64,000 bases of DNA from Spirochaetia bacterium (GCA_963677925.2 CAXXYH010000003.1:1344001-1408000); one strand, 5' to 3'; shown: positions 28,046-61,699, counted from the first letter of the stretch. Translations and numbers: made by a program. Notes: a model not told the origin generated them from the sequence alone.

Positions 28046-28055
28046 TCTATATTAT

Positions 28056-29591: not shown

Positions 29592-29652
29592 GTATCCCTC
29601 CAAATAGATAAGGGCTGTCATAAAGACAGCCCATATTTCGACTTATTTTTAT

Positions 29653-37283: not shown

Positions 37284-38192
37284 CTATATACCTATAGTAT
37301 TCAAAATAATTCCAAGAATAAATGAGAAGCCAATCAGGAAGGCAACGTAAAAAAATACCATCTTCTTTGACATAAAGCTTCCAAGTGCAGCCAGGGCTGT
37401 AACCCGTGTAGCAGGACCGACAATAAGAAATGCCATAGCGGCTCCAAGGCTCATTCCATTATTCATAAGCATCTGGACAAGGGGAATAACCCCGCCTCCG
37501 CATATATATACTGGAATACTTAAGAATGCCGCAAATATAATATTTAGCCATTCCATTGTGGCCTGTTCAAAAAGCAGCGTAACCGGAACAACAGCTTCCA
37601 GCGCTACACTGATAAGAATTCCAATCAGCAGATATTTCCCTATAAACCTGAAAGTAGACCACACGCCCTTCAGATATTCAGGGAAGTGGAAACTTGCAAT
37701 ATTCTTTGGTTTTCTGCAGCTGTTTCCGCTTTCCTCAATTCTGGAATTAACATTTCCTGAATCAAAGATTTTGATTTTCTTATTAATAAGAATTAAAGAA
37801 AACCCGAGCAAAACTGCGAAGACAAAAACACTGACAAGTCGTATCAATCCGAAACCAAGCCCGAATCCGCCGCAGGTAACTAAAAACAGCTGAGGGTTCA
37901 GCAGTGATGAGGCACCAAGGAAGGTAACCAGAGGTGCTACCGGTGTTTCCTTTTTATAAAGATCTATAACAATGGGAACGGTACTGTAGGTGCAGAGAGG
38001 AGAGGCTATCCCCAATGCTGCAGCAATAAATATTGATAACGACGGTGATTTTTTTATAGCCTTCTGAACAAAATCCGCCCAGGATGTGTATTTCAGTATT
38101 TCTGAAAGAAAAACTCCCCCGATTACCCAGGGGAGAAAATCAAGCAGAAGGCTGAAGGCCCTTTGAAAAACTGCTGATAAGAATTCAAACAT
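37284..38192 (-). CDS. DUF318 (YraQ/ArsP-type) permease, copy 2
   Basis: ASPLCTYSTVP, ASSLLNP, PVYICGGG; clear paralog of 27134-28045. Confidence 0.82.
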   Translation of the reverse strand: MFEFLSAVFQRAFSLLLDFLPWVIGGVFLSEILKYTSWADFVQKAIKKSPSLSIFIAAALGIASPLCTYSTVPIVIDLYKKETPVAPLVTFLGASSLLNPQLFLVTCGGFGLGFGLIRLVSVFVFAVLLGFSLILINKKIKIFDSGNVNSRIEESGNSCRKPKNIASFHFPEYLKGVWSTFRFIGKYLLIGILISVALEAVVPVTLLFEQATMEWLNIIFAAFLSIPVYICGGGVIPLVQMLMNNGMSLGAAMAFLIVGPATRVTALAALGSFMSKKMVFFYVAFLIGFSFILGIILNTIGI

Positions 38193-38205
38193 TAAATATT
38201 TCCGT

Positions 38206-39696
38206 TTAGATCCCTATCTTAGAGCTGTTTAAGAATCTGTCGAATCCATAAACTTCAATAGTTGATTTTTCATCATAGTTAAGGCCTTCAAAAGTGAAAT
38301 CAAGCTCTTTTCCTGAAGCTGCAGCTGAGCCTTCAAATACACCGTCAATATATACTGCAGCTTTAACCAAATCTTCATTTGAAATCATGGTCCCTTTCAG
38401 GGTTCCTGATTCAAGAACTATATTTTTCAGGCTTATAGCAGGATTTTCATAATCATCATATTTCCGTATGGCTTCAGCAAGAGAACCGAAAGGCCGCTTG
38501 ATTTCACTTACACGGACATTACCCAGAACATTTATCCTGGCCGGATCCATTATTCCCATTCCGTCTTCAGCAAGATACTTTATATAATCCACCTGCTGCG
38601 GATCTACACCGATAATAAGGGACTGCACTGTATCAATTGCAACCGCGTTTTTTGCTGCCATAATCACGCGCATATTTTTTTTGGCAGATTCATATGAATC
38701 TGCACCCTGCCCTATAGGGCCGTACTCCATTCCCTGAAGACCGTCAGTAATAATAAAGTCAACAGGCTTTACCATGTAAAAGTCATGGATGAATTTATTA
38801 AGAGGTTCCCAGCTGTGATCGACACCAAGGCGGCTCAGGGGCATTATTGTTGAAGCCATCATGGGATTCCCGTATACACGGGGAGGAGCTGTACCTATTC
38901 CTACATTCTTGATTCCGCCGGTAATTGCTGCATTACCATGACTTTTTAAAAGCGGCAGATCTATTACTACATCAGCTGAGTAGTATAATTTATCAATGTA
39001 ATACTTTCCCTCTGTCCACTTATCCAGGTCATCGGTGTATCTTTTTTTATCACCTATATCAACTGCTGTCAGATCTGAAGTATCAACTGAAAACAGGCTG
39101 TCACCCGAATCATCATAATTAAGTATTTCATCAACTTCGGGAAGATTTTCTTTTGTCCACCCGAGTATCTCCATATTCCCTGCAGTATCATCCCAGCAGG
39201 ATGTTTCCATAAGGTAAATTCTTCCTGAAGGATTCAACTCACGCACAAGTTCCGATGCGACCTTTATCACACGGTAATCTGTAGCAATTCCATTTACTTC
39301 CTGTGGAAGCATATTTTCTTCAGTACTGGCCATTCCGTTAACACGGTGGTAAGCCGATATTAGATTCGGCTTAAGGACGACAAAGTCTCCGTCATGTACA
39401 ATATCTTCAAGACCGCCGGCAAGCTCTACAGACTCTCTGATCATGGAGCGAATATCATCTTCTGTAATATCTTCTGCATGGTCTTTTCTACTTTTAATCA
39501 ATGCTACATCGGCAGTCTGATTTTCGTATGGCTTGTAGTCAGCTTTTACAATATCTTTAAGCGGTTCCACTCTGTTCATACGGTAACTTTGAACGGTAAA
39601 GAAGACCACTACAATAATAACCACTGAACCGAGAATTATTCCTATCCATTTTAAAACTTTCAGCAGGGGGCTTTTCTTTTTTTCTTTTCTACCCAT
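38206..39696 (-). CDS. Membrane-anchored DUF362-domain protein, copy 2
   Basis: N-terminal TM; VVLKPNL, NGIATDYR, LKSH, GGIKN, PVDF; paralog of 28056-29591. Confidence 0.8.
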   Translation of the reverse strand: MGRKEKKKSPLLKVLKWIGIILGSVVIIVVVFFTVQSYRMNRVEPLKDIVKADYKPYENQTADVALIKSRKDHAEDITEDDIRSMIRESVELAGGLEDIVHDGDFVVLKPNLISAYHRVNGMASTEENMLPQEVNGIATDYRVIKVASELVRELNPSGRIYLMETSCWDDTAGNMEILGWTKENLPEVDEILNYDDSGDSLFSVDTSDLTAVDIGDKKRYTDDLDKWTEGKYYIDKLYYSADVVIDLPLLKSHGNAAITGGIKNVGIGTAPPRVYGNPMMASTIMPLSRLGVDHSWEPLNKFIHDFYMVKPVDFIITDGLQGMEYGPIGQGADSYESAKKNMRVIMAAKNAVAIDTVQSLIIGVDPQQVDYIKYLAEDGMGIMDPARINVLGNVRVSEIKRPFGSLAEAIRKYDDYENPAISLKNIVLESGTLKGTMISNEDLVKAAVYIDGVFEGSAAASGKELDFTFEGLNYDEKSTIEVYGFDRFLNSSKIGI

Positions 39697-39862: not shown

Positions 39863-39887
39863 AAAAAATCCCGGGGCAACCCGGGAT
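39863..39887 (-). terminator. Intrinsic terminator of the GRE-transporter operon
   Basis: ATCCCGGG-gcaa-CCCGGGAT hairpin with a U-tract on the minus strand. Confidence 0.75.
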
Positions 39888-39929: not shown

Positions 39930-41216
39930 CTAGTAAATCCCTATAGCAATCATCACCAGATACAGAGCTATATTAATAAACGGCCATCCAAGAAGAAAAT
40001 TAAAAATAGTTTTCCTGTGACCATCATCATCAACACTTGCAACTACAAGTCCACCGCTTCCGGAGAAAGGTGATACTGCTGTAGCCATAGAACCTACAGC
40101 AACAGCTGCAAAGGCTATTCCGGGATTGAAGCCTCCGGCGATTGCCAATGCGGGAACCAGGGCAAGGAAGGTTGTATTTACGACGAATCCGCTTACGAAC
40201 AGACTCATAATACCGGCAAAAAGAGCAAGCATCATTGGAATAATTCCGGTTGGCACACTGGTGGACAGCCAGTTTGATACCATCTCTATTGCGCCGGTCT
40301 TACTTACAATACCAATCAATGTACCCATTCCGCATAATGTGGTAAGGGCTGAAAGGGGAACTTTTTTGAAAGCTTCCTTTTCATCACCAACCTTGAATAA
40401 CGAAAGAAGAACTACTCCTATGAATGCAATCCAGATAAGGTACACACCTCTTGAGAACTTGACTGCAACAGGATTTCCATGTCCCAGCAGTCCTGCCAAA
40501 GGAGCAGCAACAAGAAGAACAACAAAACCGATTATTACAGCAAGGTTAATTCTCTGCTTTTTATTAAAAGGTTCAGGTTTACTAAGCTCTGGAGCCTTGA
40601 TCTTGTAACCTTTAAAGACTATGTAAGCAATTATAAAAATAATTGTATAAAGGAGTGTAATCTGGAAAAGGGCATGGTTTCCAAAATTATGGGCTTCAGC
40701 CTCGGAATGCCCGCCGAAATTCATTATGAGTTCTCTAAGAAAAATACCAGCTGTACTAATAGGGGTGAACCCGCCGGCACTGATTCCTGACACACATGAA
40801 ACAGCAGCGAGGATGTTATTCATACCTGTTACCTTTGCAATGGTAAGCCCGATAGGAATCATCATAACAGTAGCCCCGTCACCGGCCCCTATTCCAGCCA
40901 TAATAAATGAAAGGATGTACAGAACTATAGGAATGGCCCACGGAATATTCCTTACAGAATAAACAACTTTATCAGCAACTTTTTCGAGTGTTCCGTTCAG
41001 AACCGCAAAACTGTAAAAGAGTGTTACAGAAAACAGAAGAAGAAATAGTCTGGTCGGAAAAACACCGACTAATCCTCGGGGTGATTCACCAAGCACAAAG
41101 ACACCGATAATATAGGCAGCGGTTATAGCCCATAAACCTATATTGGTTTTTGTTTTTGTTCCAATCACAATAACGGCTACTATTGCAATCAAGCTGATAA
41201 TGATGATAGTCATCAA
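39930..41216 (-). CDS. IT-superfamily carboxylate carrier (SLC13/MatC-like), copy 1
   Basis: Highly hydrophobic; NIGLWAI, FAVLNGTLE, SPFSGSGGLVVAS. Confidence 0.75.
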   Translation of the reverse strand: MMTIIIISLIAIVAVIVIGTKTKTNIGLWAITAAYIIGVFVLGESPRGLVGVFPTRLFLLLFSVTLFYSFAVLNGTLEKVADKVVYSVRNIPWAIPIVLYILSFIMAGIGAGDGATVMMIPIGLTIAKVTGMNNILAAVSCVSGISAGGFTPISTAGIFLRELIMNFGGHSEAEAHNFGNHALFQITLLYTIIFIIAYIVFKGYKIKAPELSKPEPFNKKQRINLAVIIGFVVLLVAAPLAGLLGHGNPVAVKFSRGVYLIWIAFIGVVLLSLFKVGDEKEAFKKVPLSALTTLCGMGTLIGIVSKTGAIEMVSNWLSTSVPTGIIPMMLALFAGIMSLFVSGFVVNTTFLALVPALAIAGGFNPGIAFAAVAVGSMATAVSPFSGSGGLVVASVDDDGHRKTIFNFLLGWPFINIALYLVMIAIGIY

Positions 41217-41269: not shown

Positions 41270-43660
41270 TTATACCTCAGCAAAAGCTGTTCGCTCTATA
41301 ATTTCATTCTGCATGTCATTTCCAAGGGCTGTAAAATATGCACTATATCCGGCAACCCTTACTACAAGATCCTGATGCTCATCTGGAGCAGCCTGAGCTT
41401 CAATCAGATCATCCTTGTTTACAATATTGAACTGAATGTGCTTTCCGCCCTGTGAAAAATATGTTTTGATAAGCGAACCAAGCTTTAAAAGATCAGCCCG
41501 GCTTTTCAATGCCGACGGATGAAACTTCATATTCAACAGAGTTGCCTGATAAGTGTCCTGATTAATCTTCATTGCACTCTTAAGTACACCAGTCGGCCCG
41601 TTCTTATCCATACCGTGATTAGGCGACATACTTCCATCAGCAAGTATTTCACCTCGCTTACGTCCGTCCGGGGTGGCGCCGGTAAGGGCTCCGCCCGGCT
41701 GATGGGCTGTGATTGATATTGCAGTTGCTATACCCTTTCCCCCGAAAAAGGATCTTAAGGAAACGAGTTTCTTTTCAAATTTCTCATAAACTTCAGCTGC
41801 AAGTTCATCTACATAGTCAACTCCGTTACCGTACTTTGGAACTGCCAGAAAATCTTTCTGCATTTCTTCAAAACCGACCCAGTCTGAATCGAGAGCTTTG
41901 ACAAGCTCATCCATTGAGTATTTCTTGTCTTCATAGACGAGTTTTTTAACTGCAGCAAGTGAATCAGCAACATTGATACCTCCAACAGGACAGAGGGAGA
42001 GGCTGTTTTCAAACGGAATGGAACGCCTTAAAATATCCTTTCCCTCTTTGACTGCATCAAACATCAATGAAGATCTGAATGGATCAGGAAATAAGTTCTG
42101 CTCGGCTCTTAGTTCAATATTACATTTCTCAACCCCGAGCTCAATGAAGTAATCCATCTGTTTATAGAAGGCATTCTTAAATGCTTCAAAATCTGACATC
42201 TGTGTAACATCACCTGTTTTAATTCCGACAGTTTCATTGGTACCCTTATTAAATCCGTTGTGCATGAATATATCGAAGGCCAACGCAACAACGATAAATC
42301 CGAAAGTTGCAGTCCTTGATTTTCCCGGAATAGCACCATCGAGACAGCCGCATACAATATAATTACGGGCGTCTTCTATGGGCAAACCATGATACTGGTG
42401 AAAGAAATTTATGTAAGATTTATCTCCGATGAAGGCGGGCATTCCAATTCCGGCTTTTACAACTTCAAGGGCCTTTACCATCAGCTCATCAGGTGTTTTA
42501 TCATGTACTCTCAGAGTGAGTGTATGATGAGGTATTTTAGTTTCCATTGCGGCATCAAGCAGAAGATATGTAAGCTTGTTGCTGGCATCATTTCCATCTT
42601 TATCAACACCCCCGATAATAAAATTATGCCATTTAGCCATACCGGCATTTTTTTTCCTGTTCTGCTGACCTGAAACTCGATTTAGTTTGATATCCTTGAT
42701 ACGCAGAAGTTCTAAAAGTTCAATTACTTCCTCATCAGTAGTAATTCCTTTTTCAATATCATTTTTATAAAATGGATACATGTACTGATCAAAACGTCCG
42801 GCTGCAGCTGTAGTTGCAGGATTTATCATTAGAAAGGTGAACCAGAAGCACTGTATCGCTTCAAAAAAAGTTTCAGCAGGTTTGGCAGGTACTTTCGAAC
42901 AGGCTTTAGAAATTCGCATTAGTTCAAGTTTTCTTTCAGGGTCATTTTCTTCCATAGCCATCTCGGCTGCAAGTTCCGAATACCTCTGTGCAAGCCTTAT
43001 GAGGGCTTTATGAACAATAATAACAGAATTAAGAAAATCGACAGCTTCCTGATCAGGAGTTTCGCTAGCTTCCTGAATTTTCAAAGCTTCTTCGCACTCT
43101 GCAATTAAACTTAATGAACCTTCGTTCAGCATCTTTTCATAATCAACTCCAATCAGAAAGAACCCCGGGCCAAGGCCGAGACCGGACTGAGCATAACCAC
43201 CGCCGCTGCCTTCAGCCCCTTTCCAGGGAGGAAGCATTACTCCTGATTTCATGAAAGGCCATAGTTGCTCGCTTTTCATAAATTCAGCACCCATGGCTGA
43301 AATTAGTGTTTCACTGCTGAATTTTTCATTAATTTTCTGTATTTCATCTTCATCTGCAGGATTGATTATGTAATTTTCATTTTTTAATGATTCAATTTCA
43401 TCCGGCGTCCACGTACCATATTCATAATCAATCTCAAGGCCAAAGGGTTTACTTGCCCCTGCTCCCGCAAAAAGTTCATCATCTTCAATAAAAATAGTTA
43501 TTTTTTCAAGAATATTTTTTATAATAGCCGCGCGTCGAAGTACGCTGGGCTGCCCTTCAGTAGCTGAAAGAGTCTGTGTAGCTATTTTAAATTTCTCAAT
43601 ACAAAGAGGGTACTTTTCTACCTTCAGTGTATCTAAAAGCCGTTCAATTCTTGGTGTCAT
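41270..43660 (-). CDS. Glycyl radical enzyme of an unassigned subclass
   Basis: C-terminal LVVRVAGYSAYF Gly-radical motif, HIQFN, GRFDQYMYPFY, ATPDGR; Cys loop YIVCGCLDG; 796 aa. Confidence 0.92.
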   Translation of the reverse strand: MTPRIERLLDTLKVEKYPLCIEKFKIATQTLSATEGQPSVLRRAAIIKNILEKITIFIEDDELFAGAGASKPFGLEIDYEYGTWTPDEIESLKNENYIINPADEDEIQKINEKFSSETLISAMGAEFMKSEQLWPFMKSGVMLPPWKGAEGSGGGYAQSGLGLGPGFFLIGVDYEKMLNEGSLSLIAECEEALKIQEASETPDQEAVDFLNSVIIVHKALIRLAQRYSELAAEMAMEENDPERKLELMRISKACSKVPAKPAETFFEAIQCFWFTFLMINPATTAAAGRFDQYMYPFYKNDIEKGITTDEEVIELLELLRIKDIKLNRVSGQQNRKKNAGMAKWHNFIIGGVDKDGNDASNKLTYLLLDAAMETKIPHHTLTLRVHDKTPDELMVKALEVVKAGIGMPAFIGDKSYINFFHQYHGLPIEDARNYIVCGCLDGAIPGKSRTATFGFIVVALAFDIFMHNGFNKGTNETVGIKTGDVTQMSDFEAFKNAFYKQMDYFIELGVEKCNIELRAEQNLFPDPFRSSLMFDAVKEGKDILRRSIPFENSLSLCPVGGINVADSLAAVKKLVYEDKKYSMDELVKALDSDWVGFEEMQKDFLAVPKYGNGVDYVDELAAEVYEKFEKKLVSLRSFFGGKGIATAISITAHQPGGALTGATPDGRKRGEILADGSMSPNHGMDKNGPTGVLKSAMKINQDTYQATLLNMKFHPSALKSRADLLKLGSLIKTYFSQGGKHIQFNIVNKDDLIEAQAAPDEHQDLVVRVAGYSAYFTALGNDMQNEIIERTAFAEV

Positions 43661-43713
43661 TTTTGCCTCCGTCTAATCCAAATATATCAGCATAATTTAA
43701 TAATCTGTATATA

Positions 43714-43729
43714 TGCAATTTATGTGCCA
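43714..43729 (-). promoter_or_regulatory. Sigma54 -24/-12 promoter of the GRE operon
   Basis: TGGCACATAAATTGCA (consensus TGGCAC-N5-TTGC), 54 nt upstream of the ATG. Confidence 0.88.
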
Positions 43730-43888
43730 TATATAAACTTCTTTTTCCATTTTAGACTTTTTCTTAAATATTCTAATTCTGATTAAACTTTGGTGCATTT
43801 TTAACGTATTTATATATTTTTTTAGTTTTATGTTCAGAATAAGGCCTCCAAATTCCACATTAAGTATATTAACGTTACAGGACACAAA

Positions 43889-43913
43889 GTTACACTTTGT
43901 AACCTTTTGCAAC
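43889..43913. promoter_or_regulatory. Putative enhancer (UAS) for the GRE promoter
   Basis: GTTACACTTTGTAAC palindrome overlapping TGTAACCTTTTGCAAC; same motif at the same distance as 61709-61725. Confidence 0.55.
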
Positions 43914-44010: not shown

Positions 44011-44118
44011 GACTGTCAGTACTTTCAATAAGAATGTTTCACTGCATAAAGACACATTCTAACTATGTTCGCGAACTTACTGCGAAGGAAAAGGAATTTC
44101 CCTGTATTTAACAGGAAT

Positions 44119-44134
44119 TGGCATATATTTTGCA
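44119..44134 (+). promoter_or_regulatory. Sigma54 -24/-12 promoter of the solute-binding protein gene
   Basis: TGGCATATATTTTGCA, then GGAGG at 44146 and ATG at 44157. Confidence 0.8.
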
Positions 44135-44156
44135 ATTCTCATTCCGGAGGTTAAAT

Positions 44157-45746
44157 ATGAAAAATTTTCATATCAAAAAATCAGTTCCAAAAGTATTAAT
44201 TGCAGCAGGTCTACTTGTTATGCTGCTGGCGGTATCACAGTTTTCATCCTGTGTCACCACGGACGCTTCAGCAAAACAGCTGAATGTAGCTTTGTCTACT
44301 CTGGCCGAAGAAAACTTTCTTCCCTGGAACGGAAGTACAGTCAGAAAGCCCTATCTGGATTGTATTTACGAATACATCGCGTATATCGATCCGGAAACAT
44401 CAGAACCGATCCCAGGCCTTGCTGAAAGCTGGAAATACTCTGATGACGGCCGGACTGTAACCCTGTTCATCAGAAAAGGAATTCAATTCCAGCAAGGCTG
44501 GGGAGAGTTTTCAGCTGAAGATGTTAAGTTTTCCATCGACAGAATGCTTGATCCTTCCGCTGTAGGCGGCCAGGCTTCAGCATTAAGAATGGCCGTTGCT
44601 TCGGTTGAAGCTGCGGAGAAGTATAAAGCCGTTATTACCCTGAAGGCTCCGGATCCTGTATTTGTTCAGGGTTATCTTGGAAATGGTGTAGCTATTCCCA
44701 TGGCATGTAAAAAATACATTGAAGAGATGGGAGAAGACTATGCGAATGATAACCCGGTAGGAACCGGAGCTTACACTCTGGGCGGTCATGTTGAAGGTAC
44801 ATCCGTTTCTGTACAAAAAGTCGAAGGAATGGACGAACACTGGCGTGTGAAACCGGAATTTGATACCATCAATTTTCTCGCTGTTTCAGACGAAGCTGAG
44901 CGCGTAGCTATGCTTAAAAATGGAGATATCGATCTTGCTCCGATAAACTGCAGCTCCATTACAGAAGTTGAACAGGCTGGATTGGAGACTGTTTCAATTT
45001 ATCATAATTATACTGCGGTTCTCCGTTTCGGCGGTACCAGCGGCATGTACCCTAACCCTGATGTTCCCTGGGCAAAAAAAGAGGTTCGACAGGCACTTAA
45101 TTATGCTGTAGACAGAGATAAGCTTATCAATGAAGTCCTTAAAGGAGAAGGAGATCCGGCAGGGATTGACCCCGATGCAAATGAGTTTAAAGATATAAAA
45201 GCTTACCCCTACGATCCTGCAAAGGCAAAAGCACTTCTGGCACAGGCCGGGTATCCTGATGGATTTGATGTAACCATCATGGCTGCGGCAACCATACCTG
45301 GTGCAGAACTCCCTATGCTTTCCGAAATGGTAGCAGCCCAATGGAATGAAATAGGTATTCGCGCAGAAGTGAAAGAAATCACAAATGCAGAAATTAGAGA
45401 AGCATGGACTACCGGAAAATATACCGATGTAATATGGACCCACAGAACTTACCCATGTTCAAACCTTGTTACTTCATTCCTTGTAATGAATTCCACCAGA
45501 AGCCCTCATGGTTCATTCTCCAATGAGGACACTGACAAAAGGATTATGAGTATTGCAATGGAAACTGATCCGGATCTTAGACTTTCCAAAATCCAGGAGA
45601 TGGCACAGTGGCTTAATGATGAGGGAGCAAGTATATATCTTGTTCATGGCAATGAGCCTTATGGAATAAGCAGCAAGGTAGGAAACTGGCCGGCTATCAA
45701 TCAGAATGTTACTAATTTTGATCAGATTTCTTTCGGTTCCAGATAA
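44157..45746 (+). CDS. ABC transporter substrate-binding lipoprotein, family 5 (DppA/NikA-like), orphan
   Basis: Lipobox FSSC, PGLAESW, PVGTGAY, VRQALNYAVDR, YDPAKAKALLAQAGYPDGF; start reassigned to 44157 after GGAGG. Confidence 0.9.
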   Translation: MKNFHIKKSVPKVLIAAGLLVMLLAVSQFSSCVTTDASAKQLNVALSTLAEENFLPWNGSTVRKPYLDCIYEYIAYIDPETSEPIPGLAESWKYSDDGRTVTLFIRKGIQFQQGWGEFSAEDVKFSIDRMLDPSAVGGQASALRMAVASVEAAEKYKAVITLKAPDPVFVQGYLGNGVAIPMACKKYIEEMGEDYANDNPVGTGAYTLGGHVEGTSVSVQKVEGMDEHWRVKPEFDTINFLAVSDEAERVAMLKNGDIDLAPINCSSITEVEQAGLETVSIYHNYTAVLRFGGTSGMYPNPDVPWAKKEVRQALNYAVDRDKLINEVLKGEGDPAGIDPDANEFKDIKAYPYDPAKAKALLAQAGYPDGFDVTIMAAATIPGAELPMLSEMVAAQWNEIGIRAEVKEITNAEIREAWTTGKYTDVIWTHRTYPCSNLVTSFLVMNSTRSPHGSFSNEDTDKRIMSIAMETDPDLRLSKIQEMAQWLNDEGASIYLVHGNEPYGISSKVGNWPAINQNVTNFDQISFGSR

Positions 45747-45832: not shown

Positions 45833-47647
45833 TCAGACAGGAACTTTAGATAATAAATTTGAGAATAGACCGGAGTTCAAAGCATGATTAATAGTCTGCA
45901 ATGCTTTTATGTGCTCATCCGGATTTTGTTTTGGAGATATGATGAGAAAAACCAGGTCAACATGTTTCTCGGGTTTTATATGCCACAAGACAGGCTTTTC
46001 CAGTTTACAGCCAATGGCGACAGCATCATCGACAAATTCGGATCTGCAGTGAGGCATTGCAATCCCTTCTATCAAAACCGTAGAACCCAGCTGTTCCCTT
46101 TCGATAACAGCATTCATTGTGTAGTTTACATCTTCAACATAACCATGTTCAAAAAGTGATGTTATGAGTTGGTTTATAATTTGAGTTTTAGACATTGAAT
46201 TCTGAACTTCCATTCTCTGCATAGGAACCGGCATCAACCGATCCAAATTAAGAGGCGGTTGAGGAAGGGTTTGTTTTTTAACAGCTTCTGCTTCACCGGC
46301 GGTCCACTGCTTCCATCTTATCAAAGTCCGTTCAGACAAAAAAGCGCCTACAAGTTCAAACATAACCAATGCCGGGACTATGGTATTGAAAACCATAGCA
46401 CCTTCTTCACCGCCCAGTACACTCGCTACAAGAATTGTTTCAACTGCTGCCATACCCGCCTGAGGGAGCATCAGCTTGGGAATACTTGCCGTAATTTTTT
46501 GGTCCTGTCCTGTCAGTTTGCAGCCGATCCAGTTTCCTCCCAGCTTTGAAACTGTCCTCAGTCCGAAGTATCCAAGAACCAGAAATAATGTATCAAGCGA
46601 GAAGGTTTCTATCTGAACACTTGCCCCTATAATACCGAAGAACAGCAGATTAAAAACCGGCATAACATCTTTCAGTTTAAGTGAATCAAACAGCGCATTT
46701 GTATGAAAATTTGCTACCAGGATTCCGGCAAGCACAGCAACAATGAGGAAAGGCAGATCAAAATGCATTGCTACTGAAATGACAATCGCAATAGCACCTA
46801 TGATTATCAAAAGTATTTCAACAGATGGAGTCGGATGATCTGAAAGTATTGATGACAGCAGAGAATTATTATCGTCACCATTCAGATCTTCATGCTCATG
46901 CTTATAATTTCTGATTGTGAAGCGCAGTATGATAAAAAGAACAACGCCAAGAAGCACTGCAAGCCCCATCTCGAGGGATACATCTGCAAAGATATGCACA
47001 GGCGAAATGTGTTCCCCTGCTTTAATACCTGTTGCAACACCAAGCATGATAGAAAACACTATAACTTCTAAAACATCATCAAGAACAACAATATTTGCAA
47101 GTATGTTTTTAAGCGGACCTTCTATCTGGAAACGCGACATTAATATAAAGGTAAGCGCAGGTGCTGTTGCAATACCGATTGAACCTATCAGCATGGCAAC
47201 CACCCATGAAGCTCTGAATATAAAATGAAACCCAAGTGAAATAACCATCCAAGTCAGGACCGCCTGGATCAGGCAAATGATAGTTGCTTTTACGCCTACC
47301 TGTTTTAGACGATTCCAGTGAAGCTCCTCTCCAAGAGAAAAAGCCACTATTCCAAGAAAAAGGAAAACAAAAAAATGTGACCCTTCCATTATGAGTGCGT
47401 AATCATGAAAACGGTTCTCGAAGAAATTAACGGCAGGACCCATTATGGTTAATGATGCTATTCCCGGATGACCGGACAGCCATCTACTGACTAGTAAAAG
47501 AAAATGAGGTCCCACCAGTACACCGCCTATAATCTGACCGATAACTTCACCTACATGAATTTTACGAGCTATTCTTCCGCCGAAATAAGCAGCCAGAACA
47601 AGCAGGCCCAATTCAAAAATCTGTAATTCAATATGTGAAATGCTGAT
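45833..47647 (-). CDS. Cation/H+ antiporter fused to a C-terminal PTS EIIA(Ntr/Fru)-like domain
   Basis: ATAPA, VVLDDV, PQAGMA antiporter motifs; EREQLGSTVLIEGIAMPH EIIA motif; start uncertain (ATC 47647 after a strong SD, or TTG 47611). Confidence 0.85.
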   Translation of the reverse strand: MSISHIELQIFELGLLVLAAYFGGRIARKIHVGEVIGQIIGGVLVGPHFLLLVSRWLSGHPGIASLTIMGPAVNFFENRFHDYALIMEGSHFFVFLFLGIVAFSLGEELHWNRLKQVGVKATIICLIQAVLTWMVISLGFHFIFRASWVVAMLIGSIGIATAPALTFILMSRFQIEGPLKNILANIVVLDDVLEVIVFSIMLGVATGIKAGEHISPVHIFADVSLEMGLAVLLGVVLFIILRFTIRNYKHEHEDLNGDDNNSLLSSILSDHPTPSVEILLIIIGAIAIVISVAMHFDLPFLIVAVLAGILVANFHTNALFDSLKLKDVMPVFNLLFFGIIGASVQIETFSLDTLFLVLGYFGLRTVSKLGGNWIGCKLTGQDQKITASIPKLMLPQAGMAAVETILVASVLGGEEGAMVFNTIVPALVMFELVGAFLSERTLIRWKQWTAGEAEAVKKQTLPQPPLNLDRLMPVPMQRMEVQNSMSKTQIINQLITSLFEHGYVEDVNYTMNAVIEREQLGSTVLIEGIAMPHCRSEFVDDAVAIGCKLEKPVLWHIKPEKHVDLVFLIISPKQNPDEHIKALQTINHALNSGLFSNLLSKVPV

Positions 47648-47657
47648 AGTGTTCTCC

Positions 47658-48659
47658 TTATATTATATCTGTATAGCCTACATGATTGCCTTCTATCGTT
47701 CGATTAAGCAATCTTTTATTAACGAGATAATACAGATGAGATAAAGTTTCACCTACAGCAAACCATTTCTGGTGAGGCGGAAAACTTTCCCAGTCAAGAC
47801 CGCGGGCAGACCATGACAGCTTGCCGGCGATTGAATATGCATCGATACCAGGATTAGAATTGATGATGCCAATAATTTCTTCTATCCTTTTATCATGGTG
47901 CTCGATCAGTTCATCAATTCTGCTGTAAATATCTTTCCGCGGAGTACTGCGGTGTGCGGGAAAGGCTGTCTGGACAGGAAGATTTTTTATACTGTGTAAA
48001 CTGTTCAGGTATTCGGCAAGAGGGTCTTTTCCATCAGCCCATATCCCTATATTTGGAGATATGTCAAAGAGGACATGATCTCCTGTAAAAAGCATTTGTG
48101 TTTCTGCAATATATAACACCATATGTCCCGGACTATGTCCCGGTGTATGAATACATTGACATTCTACTCCGCCAAGATCTATAACGTCGCCGTGTGAAAC
48201 ATTAGTAACAGGAAAAATTTTACCGGGAAGATAAACCCTGTTATGGTTTTCCCGATCCTGCCGGCCGATACTGTCTTCGGGATACCCTTCTTTAATATAA
48301 AGATTATTCAGCCAGCGTATTGTTTCACCTTTAACGGCCCTGAGATAATATTCATAATCATTTTCATTCATATAAATCGTACAATTTTTTTCAGCAAACA
48401 AGGGTGCCTGCCCGAAATGATCAGAATGACCGTGAGTAACAAAAAGGGCGGTTTTAGCCATATCCAGATTTATTTCTTCAATTCCGGACCACAGCTCTTC
48501 CCTGCACTCCTCTGCATCAAATCCTGTATCAATAATCAGGTTTTGTTCTTCACCGCAAATAACATAGGAATTTAAATTCCTTAAAGGATTGTTTTTTAGT
48601 TTTACATCAATAAGCCAGATTTCAGGCGAGTCTGATAATTTTTTAACATTATTTTCCAT
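47658..48659 (-). CDS. Metallo-beta-lactamase fold hydrolase
   Basis: THGHSDH, TPGHSPGH, FTGDH, PAH. Confidence 0.9.
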   Translation of the reverse strand: MENNVKKLSDSPEIWLIDVKLKNNPLRNLNSYVICGEEQNLIIDTGFDAEECREELWSGIEEINLDMAKTALFVTHGHSDHFGQAPLFAEKNCTIYMNENDYEYYLRAVKGETIRWLNNLYIKEGYPEDSIGRQDRENHNRVYLPGKIFPVTNVSHGDVIDLGGVECQCIHTPGHSPGHMVLYIAETQMLFTGDHVLFDISPNIGIWADGKDPLAEYLNSLHSIKNLPVQTAFPAHRSTPRKDIYSRIDELIEHHDKRIEEIIGIINSNPGIDAYSIAGKLSWSARGLDWESFPPHQKWFAVGETLSHLYYLVNKRLLNRTIEGNHVGYTDII

Positions 48660-48758
48660 AAATCTCCCGCATGGTTAACAGATCAATACCAGAAAAACAA
48701 TGCCGGACAAGAAAGTAACTTCCTCCCCGGCATCATACTAATTGTAGATATAGCGTAA

Positions 48759-50039
48759 TTAGAAAATATCGAAGAATCTTACTGCTGACAGAAGTGCTCC
48801 GAATAATGACATCAGGATAGCTGTAGGAAGCAGCTGCCTTGTCATCTTATCCTGCTGATCTTCAGCAGTTGAAGCTACCATAACAGCACCGCCGCTTGAG
48901 AACGGTGAAATTGCAGAAGACATAGCACCTACAAAAATAACTATAATCAGTGTTGAAACATCAATTCCGGTTACCTTTGCAACTGATATTGCAAGCGGAT
49001 AAAGAAGAGGACAGACTACACCAAGTCCGCTTGAGAAGAAGCTGAGAAATGCAGCAAAAATACTGAAAGCCGGAACAATAATAAACGGTGTTCCTACCCT
49101 GCCAAGAATCTCAGCCATTCTATCAACAAGGCCGGCCTCTGTTGCTACAAGCATCAGCATGTTGATACCGGCTATTGTAATGATAGTCGGGAAATTGATT
49201 TTCTGTAAAATTTTCTTCTCATCACCAAGCTTCATTGCCATAGCTGCTATTGCGGCAAGAACCATGATTACCTGAGGCTGACAAACCTGTCTGAGCAGCA
49301 TAGTAATCGGATTTCTTACAAAAGTAGAAAGTATAGTAGGAATTACCATCAAACAGCATGCAATAATTATGAGAATTATTGTTTTTTTCTGAACAGGATT
49401 AAAGTCTTCAGGCTTTTCAACAACTACATTTTTTGCTTTATAACCTTTGAGTACAAAGTATGCAATTATACACATTATAATTCTTGCAACACTATCTGCA
49501 AGCCAGGTTCGCATCTGAATACCAAACGCACCGTCAACGCCATTCTGTTCAAGGATAGACAATGATATAACTCCACCATATCCATTGAAGGGGTTACCGG
49601 CGCCGAGATAGACAGCACATGTTATTACAATTGCGACAAGCAGCGGAGAAATTCCTGCAGCAGCAGCCATAGCAAATACAATAGGACCGATGAAAATCGG
49701 TGTTGAGGGACCAGCACCCAATGCTGATACTACGGTTCCAACAACAAGAATTACAAGCGGAATTAATTTTGCCTGACCATGCATGGCAAACAGCATTTTC
49801 TTTCCAAGCAGGGCCATTGTTCCGTTCTCATTTGCATAAGTAAAAAACAATCCGATTGATATCAGAAAGAAAACAATTGTGTTAGGCCAGTAGTTAATAA
49901 TTGTACTGACACGCAGACCTAACATCAGTGTTCCGATAAGGAACGCAGCACCCATAGCGATAACACCGGAGTTGCACTTGAACTTCCAACCGATTACGAT
50001 TGCCGCTATTATAGCAATCAAAGAAACAGTTAATGCCAT
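48759..50039 (-). CDS. IT-superfamily carboxylate carrier (SLC13/MatC-like), copy 2
   Basis: NSGVIA, YANENGTM, SPFSSGGAVMVAS; paralog of 39930-41216. Confidence 0.75.
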   Translation of the reverse strand: MALTVSLIAIIAAIVIGWKFKCNSGVIAMGAAFLIGTLMLGLRVSTIINYWPNTIVFFLISIGLFFTYANENGTMALLGKKMLFAMHGQAKLIPLVILVVGTVVSALGAGPSTPIFIGPIVFAMAAAAGISPLLVAIVITCAVYLGAGNPFNGYGGVISLSILEQNGVDGAFGIQMRTWLADSVARIIMCIIAYFVLKGYKAKNVVVEKPEDFNPVQKKTIILIIIACCLMVIPTILSTFVRNPITMLLRQVCQPQVIMVLAAIAAMAMKLGDEKKILQKINFPTIITIAGINMLMLVATEAGLVDRMAEILGRVGTPFIIVPAFSIFAAFLSFFSSGLGVVCPLLYPLAISVAKVTGIDVSTLIIVIFVGAMSSAISPFSSGGAVMVASTAEDQQDKMTRQLLPTAILMSLFGALLSAVRFFDIF

Positions 50040-50060
50040 TAAAAGACCTCCTAAATATAT

Positions 50061-50094
50061 TAAGAGCTATAGATAATTATTTCTATAGCTCTTA
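50061..50094. other. Intergenic stem-loop between the dehydratase genes and the transporter
   Basis: TAAGAGCTATAGA / TCTATAGCTCTTA perfect 13-bp inverted repeat. Confidence 0.6.
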
Positions 50095-50105
50095 TTTTTT
50101 TTGTT

Positions 50106-51374
50106 TTACTTCTTTGCTTCTTTTGCTTTTGCCCGTCTGTCATCAATTGATTCAAATAAAGCCTGCAGACGGGTTCTAACCTGTGCTTCATTGAAATAAC
50201 TCTGATCGGTATGATCCAGCTCAAGAACGATTGCAGGAATACCATATTCCTTCTCAACCATGGCGCACATATCATATGAGCCCATACCCCATGGACGGCA
50301 GGTATGCGGTGAGTGTATGATTACAGCATCAATCTGAAATCCTTCAATATACTTTCTTACCTGAGTTCTGAATTTTGTTTCAAAGTTTATAGAATAGCCG
50401 CTGTTGCTGAATTCGCATCCTTCTGAAAACAGCGGATCATCCGGATGCAGTCCATCCGGTGGATAGGCATCTTCGATATATTCGGAATCTCTTCCAAATC
50501 CATATGTACCGTTTACAAGAACCGCTCCGTTCTCATTGAAAATTCTTGCGAGCTTGCCGACTGCGTACCATGGAAAATTTCCACGCCACATAAGTCTGTA
50601 TTTTTCATTATCAGATACACCAATCCCCTTGCTTGCCCTGTCAATAACTTCTTCTGCAAAAGCTTTGTACATTTCTGCAGCAGACTTGTTTCTCATAGTC
50701 AGACTTGGAACCATTGCAACAGCGCCATCAATAAAACTGGCAGGTGCCGGAACAGCTTTTACAGTCTCAAGAATAAGTTTTCTCCAGATACCCATTTCTC
50801 TGATTTCATGGATATTTTCCTTAAGTCTGTCGTAGTCAAAGGGTCTGCCTGTTATCTCTTCAAGGAACTCAATAAATTCCTTGATCTGATCTCTGGTGTA
50901 ATGAGCATTATCTCTCAGCTGCTGAGGATCTGATTCATAGAGAAAGGGCATATCAAGTACGAATACAGGTACATTGAAAATCTTTCCGAGACAGTAGGAC
51001 CACTGCATCATACTCGGACAGGCGTTTCCAAGTACCAGAAAATCGGGTTTGGGAACCTGAAATCTTTCGGGAATATCAACACCGTCAACCATCATAAGAG
51101 CCTGACCGATATTAATTTTTGCATATGAACAGCACTCAACACCAAGACCGGCTGCCTTTGAGTAGTCCATGTAAATGTCCTGAAGCTGAGCAGAAGCAAT
51201 TCTTGCCGCAGTATTTTCAGCCAGAAAACAGCTGATACCATGAACATTCATTACTTCGTAGGGAGCTGGTCCCATACACCAGGCAACAGTGTCTGCTCTT
51301 TCTCTGAGGTCATCATAGAACTCGTCCATTATTTTATTAATAACTGTAGTTGCTTGTATTTTATTAATTGCCAT
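50106..51374 (-). CDS. 2-hydroxyacyl-CoA dehydratase family subunit (HgdA/FldB/BcrB-like)
   Basis: ENTAA, CCSYAKIN, PKPDF, NAC, CRP, QVRTRLQAL; start reassigned to 51374. Confidence 0.85.
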   Translation of the reverse strand: MAINKIQATTVINKIMDEFYDDLRERADTVAWCMGPAPYEVMNVHGISCFLAENTAARIASAQLQDIYMDYSKAAGLGVECCSYAKINIGQALMMVDGVDIPERFQVPKPDFLVLGNACPSMMQWSYCLGKIFNVPVFVLDMPFLYESDPQQLRDNAHYTRDQIKEFIEFLEEITGRPFDYDRLKENIHEIREMGIWRKLILETVKAVPAPASFIDGAVAMVPSLTMRNKSAAEMYKAFAEEVIDRASKGIGVSDNEKYRLMWRGNFPWYAVGKLARIFNENGAVLVNGTYGFGRDSEYIEDAYPPDGLHPDDPLFSEGCEFSNSGYSINFETKFRTQVRKYIEGFQIDAVIIHSPHTCRPWGMGSYDMCAMVEKEYGIPAIVLELDHTDQSYFNEAQVRTRLQALFESIDDRRAKAKEAKK

Positions 51375-51375
51375 C

Positions 51376-52548
51376 TTATACCGCCATATTCTCAGTAATA
51401 CTCTCAAAGAAACTTTGGAGTCTTGTTTTCACCTGTCCTGTCTGCTCATTTTCAATATCAATAAACAGGTCGAGATCCTTTTTACCCTGCTGAGTAAGCT
51501 GCCTGTGAGCAAGAAAGTAGGAATAGTAGTGAGGCTCACAGTTCTGAACCATGATATTTATAACTGCTGCTGCACCGGTATCTTCAAGCATCTTAAGCTG
51601 GTAATCACCCAGTGTACGATTTTCATACTTTGTCGGGCATACTGAAACCGGATTAAAATAAGCCTGAGCCAGGGCCTCCATCGGATCAAGATCAGTTTGA
51701 TACAATGTATTGAAATATCTTGAGCCTACGTAAAGATCATCATCAATAATGACACCTCCGGTGCTCTCAATTGACTCAAGTACATAATCCTTACAAATTT
51801 CACAAATACTTCCGCTTACAATTACAGGAACATCTTTTGATTTTTCAAACGAAGAAGCCTTTTCTTCAAGAAGTGTCAGCAGCTCCTTAAGAAGGCTGCT
51901 GTGCTCTGTCTTAGGCATACACATTGAGGCCTGTACTATTCTTGAGACATCAAGTCCGCTTAGAATTCCAGGATTTGCTCTTCTGATATCATACAGCTTG
52001 ATCATAAGAGACTTATTTTCATTATAAATCGCGATTGCCTTCTTTAAATCTTCATCACTGAATTCAGACCCTGCAATTTCGCTGATAATCCCTCTCATTT
52101 TTGCCATTTCACGGCGAGTAAAATCCTGTGTAAGGCCCCTCTCAAGCTCAGGAGGAAAGTACATAAACTGGACCTTTTTAACTTTATCAGTAATGTAAGG
52201 GATAAGATCACCAATCATTCTAATTTCATGACAGCAGTCCTTTATCATTAGACAATCTACGTAACTTAAGTCATCAGTTAAAGCCTGCTCTACCATACTG
52301 CGAACATATCCGCACATATGACTCTGAACGTGTGCATTTGCAGCTACAATTGGTTTATTCTGTTCAAGAAGAACCATTGGAATCATCCCTGCAGCTTCAA
52401 TAAGCGGCTCAGGAACATCCAGACCTGCACAGGAAACAACTTTTTTATTTGTTTTCTGTTTCCATTCACGCATTGTTGCGTGCGGATCTGCAGCAATGGA
52501 TGCGAACTTATCCAACATCTGCTGCAATCCAGTAGCGTTATCTGCCAT
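51376..52548 (-). CDS. 2-hydroxyacyl-CoA dehydratase family subunit (HgdB/FldC/BcrC-like)
   Basis: PEPLIEAAG, MCGYVRS, DCC, DDLYVGSRY, NCEP, GQVKTRLQSF. Confidence 0.85.
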   Translation of the reverse strand: MADNATGLQQMLDKFASIAADPHATMREWKQKTNKKVVSCAGLDVPEPLIEAAGMIPMVLLEQNKPIVAANAHVQSHMCGYVRSMVEQALTDDLSYVDCLMIKDCCHEIRMIGDLIPYITDKVKKVQFMYFPPELERGLTQDFTRREMAKMRGIISEIAGSEFSDEDLKKAIAIYNENKSLMIKLYDIRRANPGILSGLDVSRIVQASMCMPKTEHSSLLKELLTLLEEKASSFEKSKDVPVIVSGSICEICKDYVLESIESTGGVIIDDDLYVGSRYFNTLYQTDLDPMEALAQAYFNPVSVCPTKYENRTLGDYQLKMLEDTGAAAVINIMVQNCEPHYYSYFLAHRQLTQQGKKDLDLFIDIENEQTGQVKTRLQSFFESITENMAV

Positions 52549-52559
52549 TATAATTTCTC

Positions 52560-53366
52560 CTATTCTACAATTTGGTTAATATGCTGTTTCAAGCCTCTTT
52601 CTTTTGCTGTAACAGCAGCTCCTAAAGCACCGATAATCTGAGGTTCCGGAGCTATCAGTAATTTTGTTTCAAGTAATTCTTCAAAAGCTTTAACAACCCC
52701 AAGATTTTTTGCTACTCCACCGCTCATAGCGATTGGTGCAGTCAGCCTGGCTTTTTTAACCAGAAGATAAACCCTTCGTGCAACAGCTGAATGAATTCCA
52801 GCCATAACATTTACAGGATTAGTCCCCTTCTTGGAAATCTGAGAGATTACCTCAGATTCTGCAAAAACTGTGCATATACTGCTGATGGGGAGAGCTTCAG
52901 TAGCTTCCAGAGAGCGTTTTCCCATTTCATTTACTGAAAGCCCCATGATTCCAGCCATGACATCCAGGAATCTTCCCGTACCGGCAGCACAGCGATCGTT
53001 CATAGCAAATGTAATGATACGTCCTGCTTCATCGATTGAAATGGCCTTGCTGTCCTGACCTCCGATGTCTATTACACCTCTGGCTTCGGGAAAGTAGTAG
53101 TTAATACCCTTTCCATGGCAACCAATTTCGGTCACCTGACCGTCAACAAATTCCAGCAGTTCACGTCCGTATCCTGTTGCAATTGAATAGTCAATGTCAT
53201 CCTGCGAATATCCAGCTTCATCAAGACACTGTTTCAAACACCTGTTAGCTGCATCTTCCGGTGCAAATCCCGTTAAAACAATGGAAGAGGAAAGAAGTTT
53301 TCCTTCCTCATCCAGTATTGCCACTTTTGTTGTTGTAGAACCTATATCAATTCCGACAAAAACCAC
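52560..53366 (-). CDS. ATP-dependent [4Fe-4S] dehydratase activator (HgdC/FldI/HadI family)
   Basis: GIDIGSTTTK, TGYGR, DIGGQDSK, MNDRCAAGTGRFL, CTVFAESE, GGVAKN. Confidence 0.93.
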   Translation of the reverse strand: MVFVGIDIGSTTTKVAILDEEGKLLSSSIVLTGFAPEDAANRCLKQCLDEAGYSQDDIDYSIATGYGRELLEFVDGQVTEIGCHGKGINYYFPEARGVIDIGGQDSKAISIDEAGRIITFAMNDRCAAGTGRFLDVMAGIMGLSVNEMGKRSLEATEALPISSICTVFAESEVISQISKKGTNPVNVMAGIHSAVARRVYLLVKKARLTAPIAMSGGVAKNLGVVKAFEELLETKLLIAPEPQIIGALGAAVTAKERGLKQHINQIVE

Positions 53367-53395
53367 TTGCTATACCTACCTTATTGGGAATCAGA

Positions 53396-54637: not shown

Positions 54638-54706
54638 ATAGTTTCTCCTCCATTAGTAAAATTAGTTTTTGAAAAATAGATTGATTTATAAAAATCGTAT
54701 TAATGC

Positions 54707-55870: not shown

Positions 55871-55885
55871 TTTAAGTCTCCTAAT

Positions 55886-56737: not shown

Positions 56738-56749
56738 TTAAGTGGCTCC

Positions 56750-57664: not shown

Positions 57665-57720
57665 TCCTAACCTCAGTGTATTAATATTTAATTTTCAATT
57701 ATTTTTAAATTCAGAAATAA

Positions 57721-57746
57721 AGGCGGAGCCGGTTTACGGTCCGCCT
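57721..57746 (-). terminator. Intra-operon hairpin (weak terminator or stabiliser) after the reductase gene
   Basis: AGGCGGACCG-taaac-CGG(C)TCCGCCT followed by TTATTT on the minus strand. Confidence 0.5.
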
Positions 57747-57760
57747 ATTAATTTAATGTT

Positions 57761-59776: not shown

Positions 59777-59829
59777 TATATTTCTAAGCTCCTTATTTCT
59801 ATTGGTTTATTTTCAATTCAGACAAATGC

Positions 59830-61407: not shown

Positions 61408-61523
61408 AGCACTCTTGTATGAGTGTCCATACAGAACCCATACTTCTCCTTATAATAGAATTCCTGAATTTTAAAATATTCATTTATTGAATCATTTACT
61501 TATCTTCAGGATGGTGCTAATAG

Positions 61524-61539
61524 TGCAATTTATATGCCA
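61524..61539 (-). promoter_or_regulatory. Sigma54 -24/-12 promoter of the CoA-dependent operon
   Basis: TGGCATATAAATTGCA, 15/16 identical to the GRE promoter. Confidence 0.88.
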
Positions 61540-61699
61540 GTTTTCATTTTGGATTTTAAATGACGAAGGTTTCTTTAATATTTAATATATTTTAATCTGA
61601 TTTTTGTGATTTTAAGGCTTTATTCCTGTTTAAGTTTTTTTATGTATCTTTTTTTTATTTATAAATGTAACATCTGTAATTTTAACACAATAAAGGCGT

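Follow-up and report, generated by a model that had tools for sequence, protein, structure and literature searches.

A stretch of 64,000 nucleotides (nt) from a Spirochaetia bacterium (GCA_963677925.2, CAXXYH010000003.1:1344001-1408000), referred to here as the window, carries the gene for an oxygen-sensitive radical enzyme, a glycyl radical enzyme (GRE), on its minus strand at positions 41270 to 43660. Judged by its sequence, the encoded protein, P0001, is a member of a GRE clade in which we found no characterised member and for which an Asp residue in the thiyl loop and a Gly-rich segment are signatures; we refer to it as the Cys-x-Asp clade. The gene is a single open frame encoding 796 amino acids, with an ATG start and a GGAGG ribosome-binding site upstream. 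Pfam matches were obtained to the PFL-like domain (PF02901; E value, 1.4e-153; residues 1 to 655) and to the Gly_radical domain (PF01228; E value, 4.5e-31; residues 677 to 777). The Gly loop RVAGYS (residues 768 to 773; nt 41342 to 41359, minus strand) matches the RVxG[FWY] pattern and is present as an earlier note on this DNA had described it; by homology, G771 (nt 41348 to 41350) is the predicted radical site. That the locus encodes a real GRE is close to certain. The gene appears intact, and its product is probably functional.

The thiyl (Cys) loop comprises C437-G-C439-L-D441 within YIVCGCLDG, with CGCLD spanning exactly nt 42338 to 42352 (minus strand). In the HMMER alignment of P0001 with glycerol dehydratase (GDH) 1R8W, Cys433 was aligned with C439 and Glu435 with D441. 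This alignment identifies C439 as the catalytic Cys. Two residues after it (Cys+2), Asp stands where eliminases have Glu, and two residues before it (Cys-2) there is an extra Cys. Translation and alignment thereby bore out how the earlier note had read this loop, and its statement that eliminases carry G-C-V-E agrees with the HMMER alignments and with the CXE motif given in the eliminase sections of a June 2026 review (PMC13450708). The Gly-rich segment that it had pointed out, GSGGGYAQSGLGLGPG, was found at approximately residues 151 to 166. Alignment columns place it in a clade-wide insertion of approximately residues 143 to 168 (LPPWK..GSGGGYAQSGLGLGPGF; nt 43157 to 43234, minus strand), which directly precedes L169, the residue in the column of GDH His164.

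A search of 5.8 billion proteins yielded 119 homologues among the best matches listed, with 55 to 86% identity to P0001 and generic names only. A GC[LV]D loop was present in all 119 (65 GCLD and 54 GCVD). The residue at Cys-2 was Thr in 118 of them, and Cys was shared by P0002 (86% identity) only; at Cys+4, Asn occupied the position in 118 cases, and P0002 alone shared Ala with P0001. Since the GC[LV]D loop occurs throughout the listed homologues, Asp is a rule of the family, and C437 and A443 are peculiar to a small P0001/P0002 lineage. The extra Cys, which the earlier note had put forward as a signature, therefore does not serve as one, and the loop is no oddity of this gene, five paralogues with it being present in this genome alone. 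The clade is large, with 1452 proteins at an E value of 0.001 or less among the 8000 candidates scored, and is spread over records from Spirochaetia, Clostridia (many of them gut or rumen genomes), Desulfobacterota-type bacteria, Acidobacteriota, Planctomycetota, and Chloroflexota. A metagenome scan for closer orthologues of P0001 returned a single locus (L128) at 52% identity.

The position of the clade was evaluated with two trees, both of them unrooted and without bootstraps. The FastTree set of 141 rows consisted of P0001, 134 full-length representatives at 50% identity, and the six other GREs of the genome. Seventeen of its 20 Cys-x-Asp rows fell into one 18-row clade with an SH-like support of 92, itself inside sets with support of 97 to 99, and three fell outside. 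A quick IQ-TREE tree of 50 chosen rows recovered the clade together with four near rows at a support of 99. P0001 was located inside the Cys-x-Asp clade in both trees. On the same side of one branch (support of 97 in FastTree and 99 in the quick IQ-TREE tree) but as a separate clade stood an eight-row group resembling the arylacetate decarboxylase AAD, whose representative P0218 scored 677 bits against AAD 7E7L.

Informally, members of the clade were recognised by four marks, all of which P0001 possesses: a GC[LVIM]D loop, a Gly-rich insertion ahead of the first barrel strand, a GHS loop of reduced length, and the arginines R335, R449, and R546. No published name for the clade was found. The segment at residues 140 to 172 was 31 to 41 residues long in the 18 clade rows, compared with 15 to 24 (mostly 16 to 20) in 60 of the 61 CxE representatives and 15 to 21 in the eight AAD-like rows, giving the clade about 16 extra residues. 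The column of GDH His164 held His in 45 of the 61 CxE representatives and in none of the 18 clade rows, and the 'ESNGHS' segment (residues 272 to 289) was 17 to 18 residues long in the clade versus 21 to 22 in 58 of the 61. R335 was invariant in the clade, and W344, R449, R546, S649, and H653 were nearly so; position 546 was Gly in 56 of the 61 CxE representatives. An anionic substrate would be a good match for the three additional arginines. Lacking both the CXE Glu and an equivalent of His164, the clade is without two of the three elements of eliminase catalysis.

P0001 reached no NCBIfam equivalog. The highest score was obtained with HpsG (520.6 bits against a cut-off of 1000), and HypD (463/1100) and CutC (458/1050) gave lower values. 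The decarboxylase equivalogs IAD (447.8/1100) and the HPAD large subunit (366/1150) were also far from their cut-offs, and equivalog-level similarity to a characterised decarboxylase (HPAD, IAD, PAD, or AAD) was not found. The PFL model TIGR01255 scored 127.3 bits against 994.2, and the adjacent Cys pair of the formate lyases PFL and TdcE is absent from P0001, which has C-G-C instead. The PFL2-3 subfamily model TIGR01774 was failed as well (531.2 bits; cut-off, 678.2). All five Cys-x-Asp paralogues of the genome scored 514 to 539 bits with this model, whereas its two CxE GREs passed with 984 and 795 bits and served as an internal control. In pairwise comparison with PDB entries, the best score was that of 1R8W (472 bits), ahead of AAD 7E7L (407.5), MASS (330), BSS (317), and 1H16 (101). 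With no equivalog reached, TIGR01774 failed, and the best solved structure only 35% identical, the proposal made in the earlier note of an uncharacterised GRE subclass was upheld; no characterised GRE with high identity and the same loop came to light.

The literature is in line with this placement. In PMC13450708, all the eliminases and isomerases listed retain CXE (sections 5.6 and 5.7); the CXE enzymes considered here were glycerol dehydratase (GD), propanediol dehydratase (PD), CutC, HypD, IslA, HpsG, HplG, YbiW, and PflD. Its sections 5.4, 5.6, 5.7, and 7 contain no mention of a CXD enzyme that we could find, and the same source points out that whole GRE clades remain untested. Among the papers listed by our literature search, none likewise described a characterised GRE whose loop is CXD, although the cluster may be named in supplementary similarity-network tables. 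A paper on a limonene GRE (PMC12583861) was set aside as not relevant, the enzyme being, judging from passages of it, a succinate synthase.

The nearest characterised enzymes are glycerol dehydratase from Clostridium butyricum (1R8W/1R9D) and the propanediol dehydratases (5I2A/5I2G and 9RCO), which gave the best matches by both sequence and Foldseek (TM score, 0.88 to 0.89), with identities of 35% for 1R8W and 31 to 33% for the propanediol dehydratases. P0001 has in common with them the fold, the Gly loop, the position of the catalytic Cys, and an acidic residue at Cys+2. It differs from them by Asp in place of Glu435, Leu169 in place of His164, an 'ESNGHS' loop that is 3 to 4 residues shorter, the additional residues before the first barrel strand, and the clade-specific arginines, and its gene has no microcompartment or aldehyde-handling genes nearby. 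The main rival to the decarboxylase reading developed below builds on this resemblance: P0001 would catalyse a 1,2-elimination, as a dehydratase or lyase, on a hydroxy-carboxylate (for example, a sugar acid or a 2,3-dihydroxy acid), with Asp441 as the base on the substrate hydroxyl and another residue replacing the His proton donor. The acidic residue at Cys+2 in every one of the listed homologues and the dehydratase structures as closest matches speak for it. It has to contend with the absence of a His164 equivalent from all 18 clade rows, the shortened GHS loop, and a TIGR01774 cut-off that the CxE paralogues of the same genome pass. According to section 5.6 of PMC13450708, His164 protonates the leaving hydroxyl in GDH. 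We consider this eliminase rather unlikely, although it is the strongest of the competing explanations.

AAD from Olsenella scatoligenes (7E7L) resembles P0001 in other respects. It has no accessory subunit, lacks both the eliminase His and the CXE Glu (its loop reads GCVL in the alignment), and acts on a carboxylate. Unlike the P0001 clade, the eight AAD-like rows have no Gly-rich insertion, a 21-residue loop in the 'GHS' region, no Asp at Cys+2, and no R546. P0001 might be an AAD-like decarboxylase of an aromatic or heteroaromatic acetate, working in aromatic amino acid fermentation together with an fld- or had-like operon. That AAD-like proteins form the neighbouring group in both trees agrees with this, and so does the gene order of the operon described below; the clade insertion and the three arginines, which the eight AAD-like rows are missing, and the low IAD and HPAD scores argue against it. 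PFL and TdcE share with P0001 the GRE fold, the Gly loop, and two Cys residues in the thiyl loop. The pair is adjacent in those enzymes versus split by Gly in P0001, in which Cys437 moreover corresponds to Thr in nearly all listed homologues.

Addition chemistry was weighed as well. The earlier note had listed C-C bond formation, which would be a hydroalkylation or other addition like that of the X-succinate synthases, and the clade arginines could bind a fumarate-like co-substrate. No genes for the small accessory subunits of X-succinate synthases were found beside the GRE gene, however, its flanks being occupied by a MatC carrier gene and an SBP_bac_5 gene. In both trees the clade stood apart from the rows taken as succinate-synthase-like, a label that is itself tentative, and BSS and MASS were among the weaker PDB matches. 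C-C addition is accordingly given very little credence.

An AlphaFold2 model of P0001, resting on an alignment of 26 sequences, had a mean pLDDT of 86.3 and a pTM of 0.90. Foldseek returned TM scores of 0.85 to 0.92 to every GRE class, so that the fold is certain and the class is undecidable by this means; 1R8W was again the best solved structure. The model was poor at residues 648 to 670, a strand that is considered further below. The ESM Atlas yielded generic GRE clusters only for P0001.

Downstream of the GRE gene by 53 nt, on the same strand, lies the gene for a MatC/CitMHS-type carrier of 428 amino acids (positions 39930 to 41216; Pfam MatC_N and CitMHS). It is intact and encodes a protein 84% identical to the carrier beside a paralogous GRE. 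A terminator-like hairpin with a T run, comprising 8 pairs of which 6 are G-C, was found by a consensus scan 3' of the carrier gene (positions 39868 to 39887, minus strand). A sigma-54-type promoter, TGGCACATAAATTGCA, lies 54 nt before the GRE ATG (positions 43714 to 43729, minus strand) and matches TGGCAC-N5-TTGCW exactly. Six exact matches to this consensus were found in the 5.04-Mb genome, in which rpoN is present, versus one match to a reversed control pattern. A putative activator-binding element, GTTGCAAAAGGTTACAAAGTGTAACT, is located 184 nt upstream of the promoter (positions 43888 to 43913, minus strand). From this arrangement, the carrier is probably co-transcribed with the GRE gene, and the two are likely to form a two-gene sigma-54 unit.

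The 457-nt gap upstream of the GRE gene holds only one open reading frame of at least 30 amino acids on the GRE strand. This 71-amino-acid frame (positions 43697 to 43912) was weighed as a candidate small subunit and dismissed, as it begins with TTG, is rich in Lys and Ile, and overlaps the promoter and the upstream element. No Rfam family matched at gathering score between positions 39000 and 46000, hence no known riboswitch is present there. On the opposite strand, a third sigma-54-like site with one mismatch, TGGCATATATTTTGCA (positions 44119 to 44134, plus strand), falls at the start of the divergent SBP_bac_5 gene (positions 44118 to 45746). The latter is an orphan gene for a family-5 solute-binding protein, with no ABC permease genes after it; homologous genes occur in 10 of 71 GRE loci from other genomes and this one (the set is described below).

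A second promoter, TGGCATATAAATTGCA (positions 61524 to 61539, minus strand), is nearly identical to that of the GRE unit and heads a same-strand row of genes of about 15.5 kb (positions 61407 to 45833; 45833 to 61539 including the promoter). This putatively co-regulated operon was annotated with Pfam. Its first part encodes CoA_trans, an OYE-type enoate/dienoyl reductase, enoyl-CoA hydratase, 3-hydroxyacyl-CoA dehydrogenase, and thiolase. These are followed by a CoA-transferase III, an HgdC-like activator, and two HGD-D dehydratase subunits, and at the end by a second MatC carrier, an MBL-fold protein, and an Na/H-exchanger-EIIA fusion. The HGD-D pair represents the only HGD-D (2-hydroxyacyl-CoA dehydratase) genes in the genome, and the MatC protein of the operon is 28% identical to the GRE-linked one. 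A second copy of the upstream element was identified at positions 61699 to 61724 (minus strand), 185 nt upstream of the second promoter. The shared element, GTTGCAAA-NN-GTTWCAAA-NTGT, occurs at only two genomic sites with at most one mismatch, these being the sites from which the pattern was derived; what is informative is their common register (184 and 185 nt) and the absence of the element elsewhere in the genome.

The second promoter lies just downstream of a gene for a sigma-54-dependent activator of 479 amino acids (positions 61796 to 63235, minus strand; Pfam Sigma54_activat and HTH_8), whose N-terminal 155 amino acids gave a sub-threshold PAS match only. It is a candidate regulator of both the GRE unit and the operon. 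What is new here is a GRE-MatC unit under a predicted promoter of exact sigma-54 consensus, with promoter and upstream element recurring before the sole 2-hydroxyacyl-CoA dehydratase operon of the genome. The order of CoA-transferase III, activator, and two dehydratase subunits, which we take to resemble that of the aryllactate (fld) and 2-hydroxyisocaproate (had) dehydratase operons, is the second point in favour of an arylacetate decarboxylase. The adjacent carrier, being of the MatC/CitMHS di-/tricarboxylate type, points to di-/tricarboxylates and not to arylacetates, and the TTT and TRAP systems beside other paralogues (see below) likewise argue against an aromatic substrate. On balance, we judge an arylacetate decarboxylase to be improbable, clearly more so than an eliminase.

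The genome encodes seven GREs in total, five of them with a Cys-x-Asp loop. All five have a gene for a carboxylate-type carrier within three genes: MatC/CitMHS at two, TctBAC (TTT) at two, and TRAP DctPQM at one. One of the TctBAC loci also encodes a PrpD/MmgE-family enzyme and a PGA_cap protein, and the TRAP locus encodes a DHDPS-family aldolase. Only 2 of the 27 matches to the activase model TIGR02494 in the genome were above the cut-off, and no activase was found within the 64-kb window. One activase gene (C3:709331-710200) lies directly upstream of the 74% identical paralogue P0003, where the genes run MerR, activase, GRE, MatC. P0001 has exactly the same Gly loop as P0003 (VVRVAGYSAYFTA), and section 2.5 of PMC13450708 describes known cross-activation as mostly taking place between highly similar GREs, the pairs cited there having the same or nearly the same Gly loops. 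Loop identity together with this precedent makes activation in trans plausible, and we slightly favour the view that P0001 would be activated by the activase of its paralogue.

The same-genus genome G001 (98% complete) contains no orthologue of P0001, only a 73% paralogue locus. Window positions 30001 to 64000 have no syntenic counterpart there but only scattered matches of a paralogous kind, and this region of at least 34 kb is accessory by that comparison. In our reading, the GRE-carrier module would have been duplicated or acquired, would have lost its MerR and activase genes, and would have been rewired into a sigma-54 regulon together with an operon for acid fermentation. Alternatively, the pair may be a silent or redundant duplicate, copied without activase and MerR regulator and now unused, as might be expected from the missing activase in the window and the missing orthologue in G001. 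The GRE frame and the carrier are both intact, however, and among the positions conserved in 16 or more of the 18 clade rows, P0001 differs from the consensus at just 2. In addition, the gene has its own ribosome-binding site, exact sigma-54 promoter, and terminator-like hairpin, and its 86% identical relative P0002 shares both loop substitutions. We regard a silent duplicate as highly improbable. A GRE-like frame of the same clade was also seen in G001 (C9:322209-323744); it covers residues 281 to 792 only, contains one in-frame TAG, and is probably a decayed paralogue.

To place the gene context on a broader footing, 75 loci were compared, consisting of 70 of 79 homologous loci, namely those with at least 41% identity (L022 to L091), and the five loci of this genome. 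Counts refer to the 71 loci with a recognisable Cys-x-Asp GRE open reading frame, L058, L066, L077, and L086 being left out, and many of the contigs are short. A MatC/CitMHS, TTT, or TRAP gene was present within three genes of the GRE gene in 30 of the 71 loci and anywhere in the examined locus in 36. An activase gene lay within three genes in 28, and two or more Cys-x-Asp GREs were found in 15. Further genes encoded a PucR-type regulator (17 loci), PGA_cap (15), PrpD/MmgE (12), and HGD-D dehydratase subunits (8). In L025, a same-strand array encodes CitMHS, PGA_cap, HgdA, HgdB, CoA-transferase III, GRE, MatC, activase, and CoA-transferase III. In Geosporobacter ferrireducens (L024), the corresponding order is GRE, MatC, DUF6198, acyl-CoA dehydrogenase, EtfB, EtfA, CitMHS, HgdA, and HgdB. 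Such loci associate the clade with CoA chemistry outside this genome too. A GRE gene directly followed by a carrier gene recurs in loci from Spirochaetia, Clostridia, and Planctomycetota (L016, L022, L024, L028, and L065), and a minimal conserved module of regulator, activase, GRE, and carrier is found in L016, L022, and L065.

These contexts also bear on the eliminase. An aldehyde:ferredoxin oxidoreductase is encoded in three clade loci (L025, L067, and L079; by Pfam on the L025 member) and would suit an aldehyde product, and the paralogue locus with the DHDPS-family aldolase and the TRAP system also encodes a GH106 enzyme. The minimal module, on the other hand, does without any aldehyde-handling enzyme.

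The loci with several GREs contain two or three Cys-x-Asp paralogues, often side by side and often one of a 'TGCLD[GA]N' type with one of an 'AGCLD[LV]N' type, and include L023, L031, L037, L044 to L046, L056, L057, L060 to L062, L067, L068, L079, L081 to L083, and L090. Such paired enzymes could catalyse sequential reactions or form hetero-oligomers.

Taken together, the best explanation is that P0001 is a Cys-x-Asp GRE that is activated in trans and co-regulated through sigma-54, to which, as a whole, we assign a probability of roughly 0.45. The GRE gene would be transcribed with the adjacent MatC/CitMHS carrier gene from the sigma-54 promoter, and co-regulated with the 2-hydroxyacyl-CoA dehydratase/beta-oxidation operon through the upstream element common to both and the product of the activator gene at 61796 to 63235. 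The glycyl radical would be installed in trans by the activase encoded at C3:709331-710200. A small di- or tricarboxylate would enter through the MatC carrier and be held by the extra arginines; that the substrate is a carboxylate of some kind is reasonably probable. The thiyl radical at Cys439, derived from Gly771, would attack the substrate by H-atom or electron transfer. The most likely outcome would be radical decarboxylation, R-CH2-COO- to R-CH3, as in AAD-type enzymes, with Asp441 as a proton relay, and the product would either enter CoA-level metabolism through the co-regulated operon or be exported. Canonical 1,2-elimination would be less likely. The sequence cannot decide among the decarboxylase, lyase, and C-C addition chemistries named in the earlier note, and the evidence leans to the first; the assignment as a decarboxylase is itself tentative. 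The gene arrangement recalls two-gene modules of a decarboxylase and an exchanger, as known from oxalate/formate, malate/lactate, and amino acid/amine systems, in that the gene for the putative decarboxylase is directly followed by one for a secondary carrier of organic anions. Unlike in those modules, some paralogues adjoin binding-protein-dependent importers (TTT and TRAP).

It should be noted that a number of observations weigh against this explanation. The decarboxylase assignment draws on the tree position beside AAD, the loss of eliminase residues, and the gene context, none of which is direct. The closest solved relatives by pairwise score are dehydratases (472 bits for 1R8W versus 407 for AAD), and Asp441 still provides a carboxylate where the catalytic base sits, which would be compatible with eliminase-type chemistry. 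In the structure model, residues 648 to 670 (nt 41651 to 41719; AISITAHQPGG...) had a pLDDT of 32 to 35, and in solved GREs this strand lines the active site and carries substrate-contacting residues. With regard to regulation, three sigma-54 sites with at most one mismatch occur in the window, a number reached by 47 of 100 shuffles and thus not above chance by itself, and the upstream-element pattern was, as mentioned, obtained from its own two sites. In 25 of the 71 loci, no activase and no transporter of the three types was encoded within three genes of the GRE gene. TTT and TRAP systems import only and do not exchange, for which reason the idea of a decarboxylase plus exchanger fails for some paralogues. 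Finally, the genome contains two biotin-type decarboxylase sets (Carboxyl_trans and OAD_beta; C3:362750-366273 and C3:1249681-1253204), so that a test for a glutaconyl-CoA decarboxylase gap revealed no clear gap in the pathway that the GRE would fill. The HMM scores of the two sets are equal or almost so, which suggests a recent large duplication.

To our knowledge, every newly assigned GRE so far has stood for a new anaerobic reaction. GREs convert choline to trimethylamine, dehydrate hydroxyproline, release sulfite from isethionate, and form skatole and p-cresol. The active site of the clade departs in several places at once from those of all classes studied, which makes it plausible that common organic acids undergo a new reaction here. 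The Cys-x-Asp clade might go as far as to constitute a new functional class of GREs, cofactor-free radical decarboxylases of aliphatic di-/tricarboxylates, but this is doubtful at present. If it were true, the acid imported and decarboxylated by the GRE-MatC pair would carry a CH2-COO- group beside a radical-stabilising group; candidate reactions are glutaconate to crotonate and malonate to acetate, and a further candidate is an aconitate or itaconate isomer. The product would feed into the CoA-transferase/2-hydroxyacyl-CoA dehydratase/beta-oxidation operon or exit via the carrier, which would provide anaerobic acid fermentation with a biotin- and CoA-independent alternative to decarboxylases of the glutaconyl-CoA type. 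A cultivable-type genome context, five paralogues, and one activase of the cognate type would offer an experimental handle. The two-gene unit, whose sigma-54 promoter and upstream element recur at a defined operon for acid fermentation, would moreover narrow the search for the substrate and offer a regulator.

Elsewhere in the window, two copies of a gene pair encoding a DUF362 protein of about 500 amino acids and an ArsP_1-type permease were observed at positions 27134 to 29621 and 37284 to 39696, both on the minus strand. The DUF362 proteins have an N-terminal membrane segment. The pair at 37284 to 39696 was assigned with Pfam, and that at 27134 to 29621 by likeness of its translation; the former is followed by genes for a cyclophilin-like family protein and a MarR regulator.

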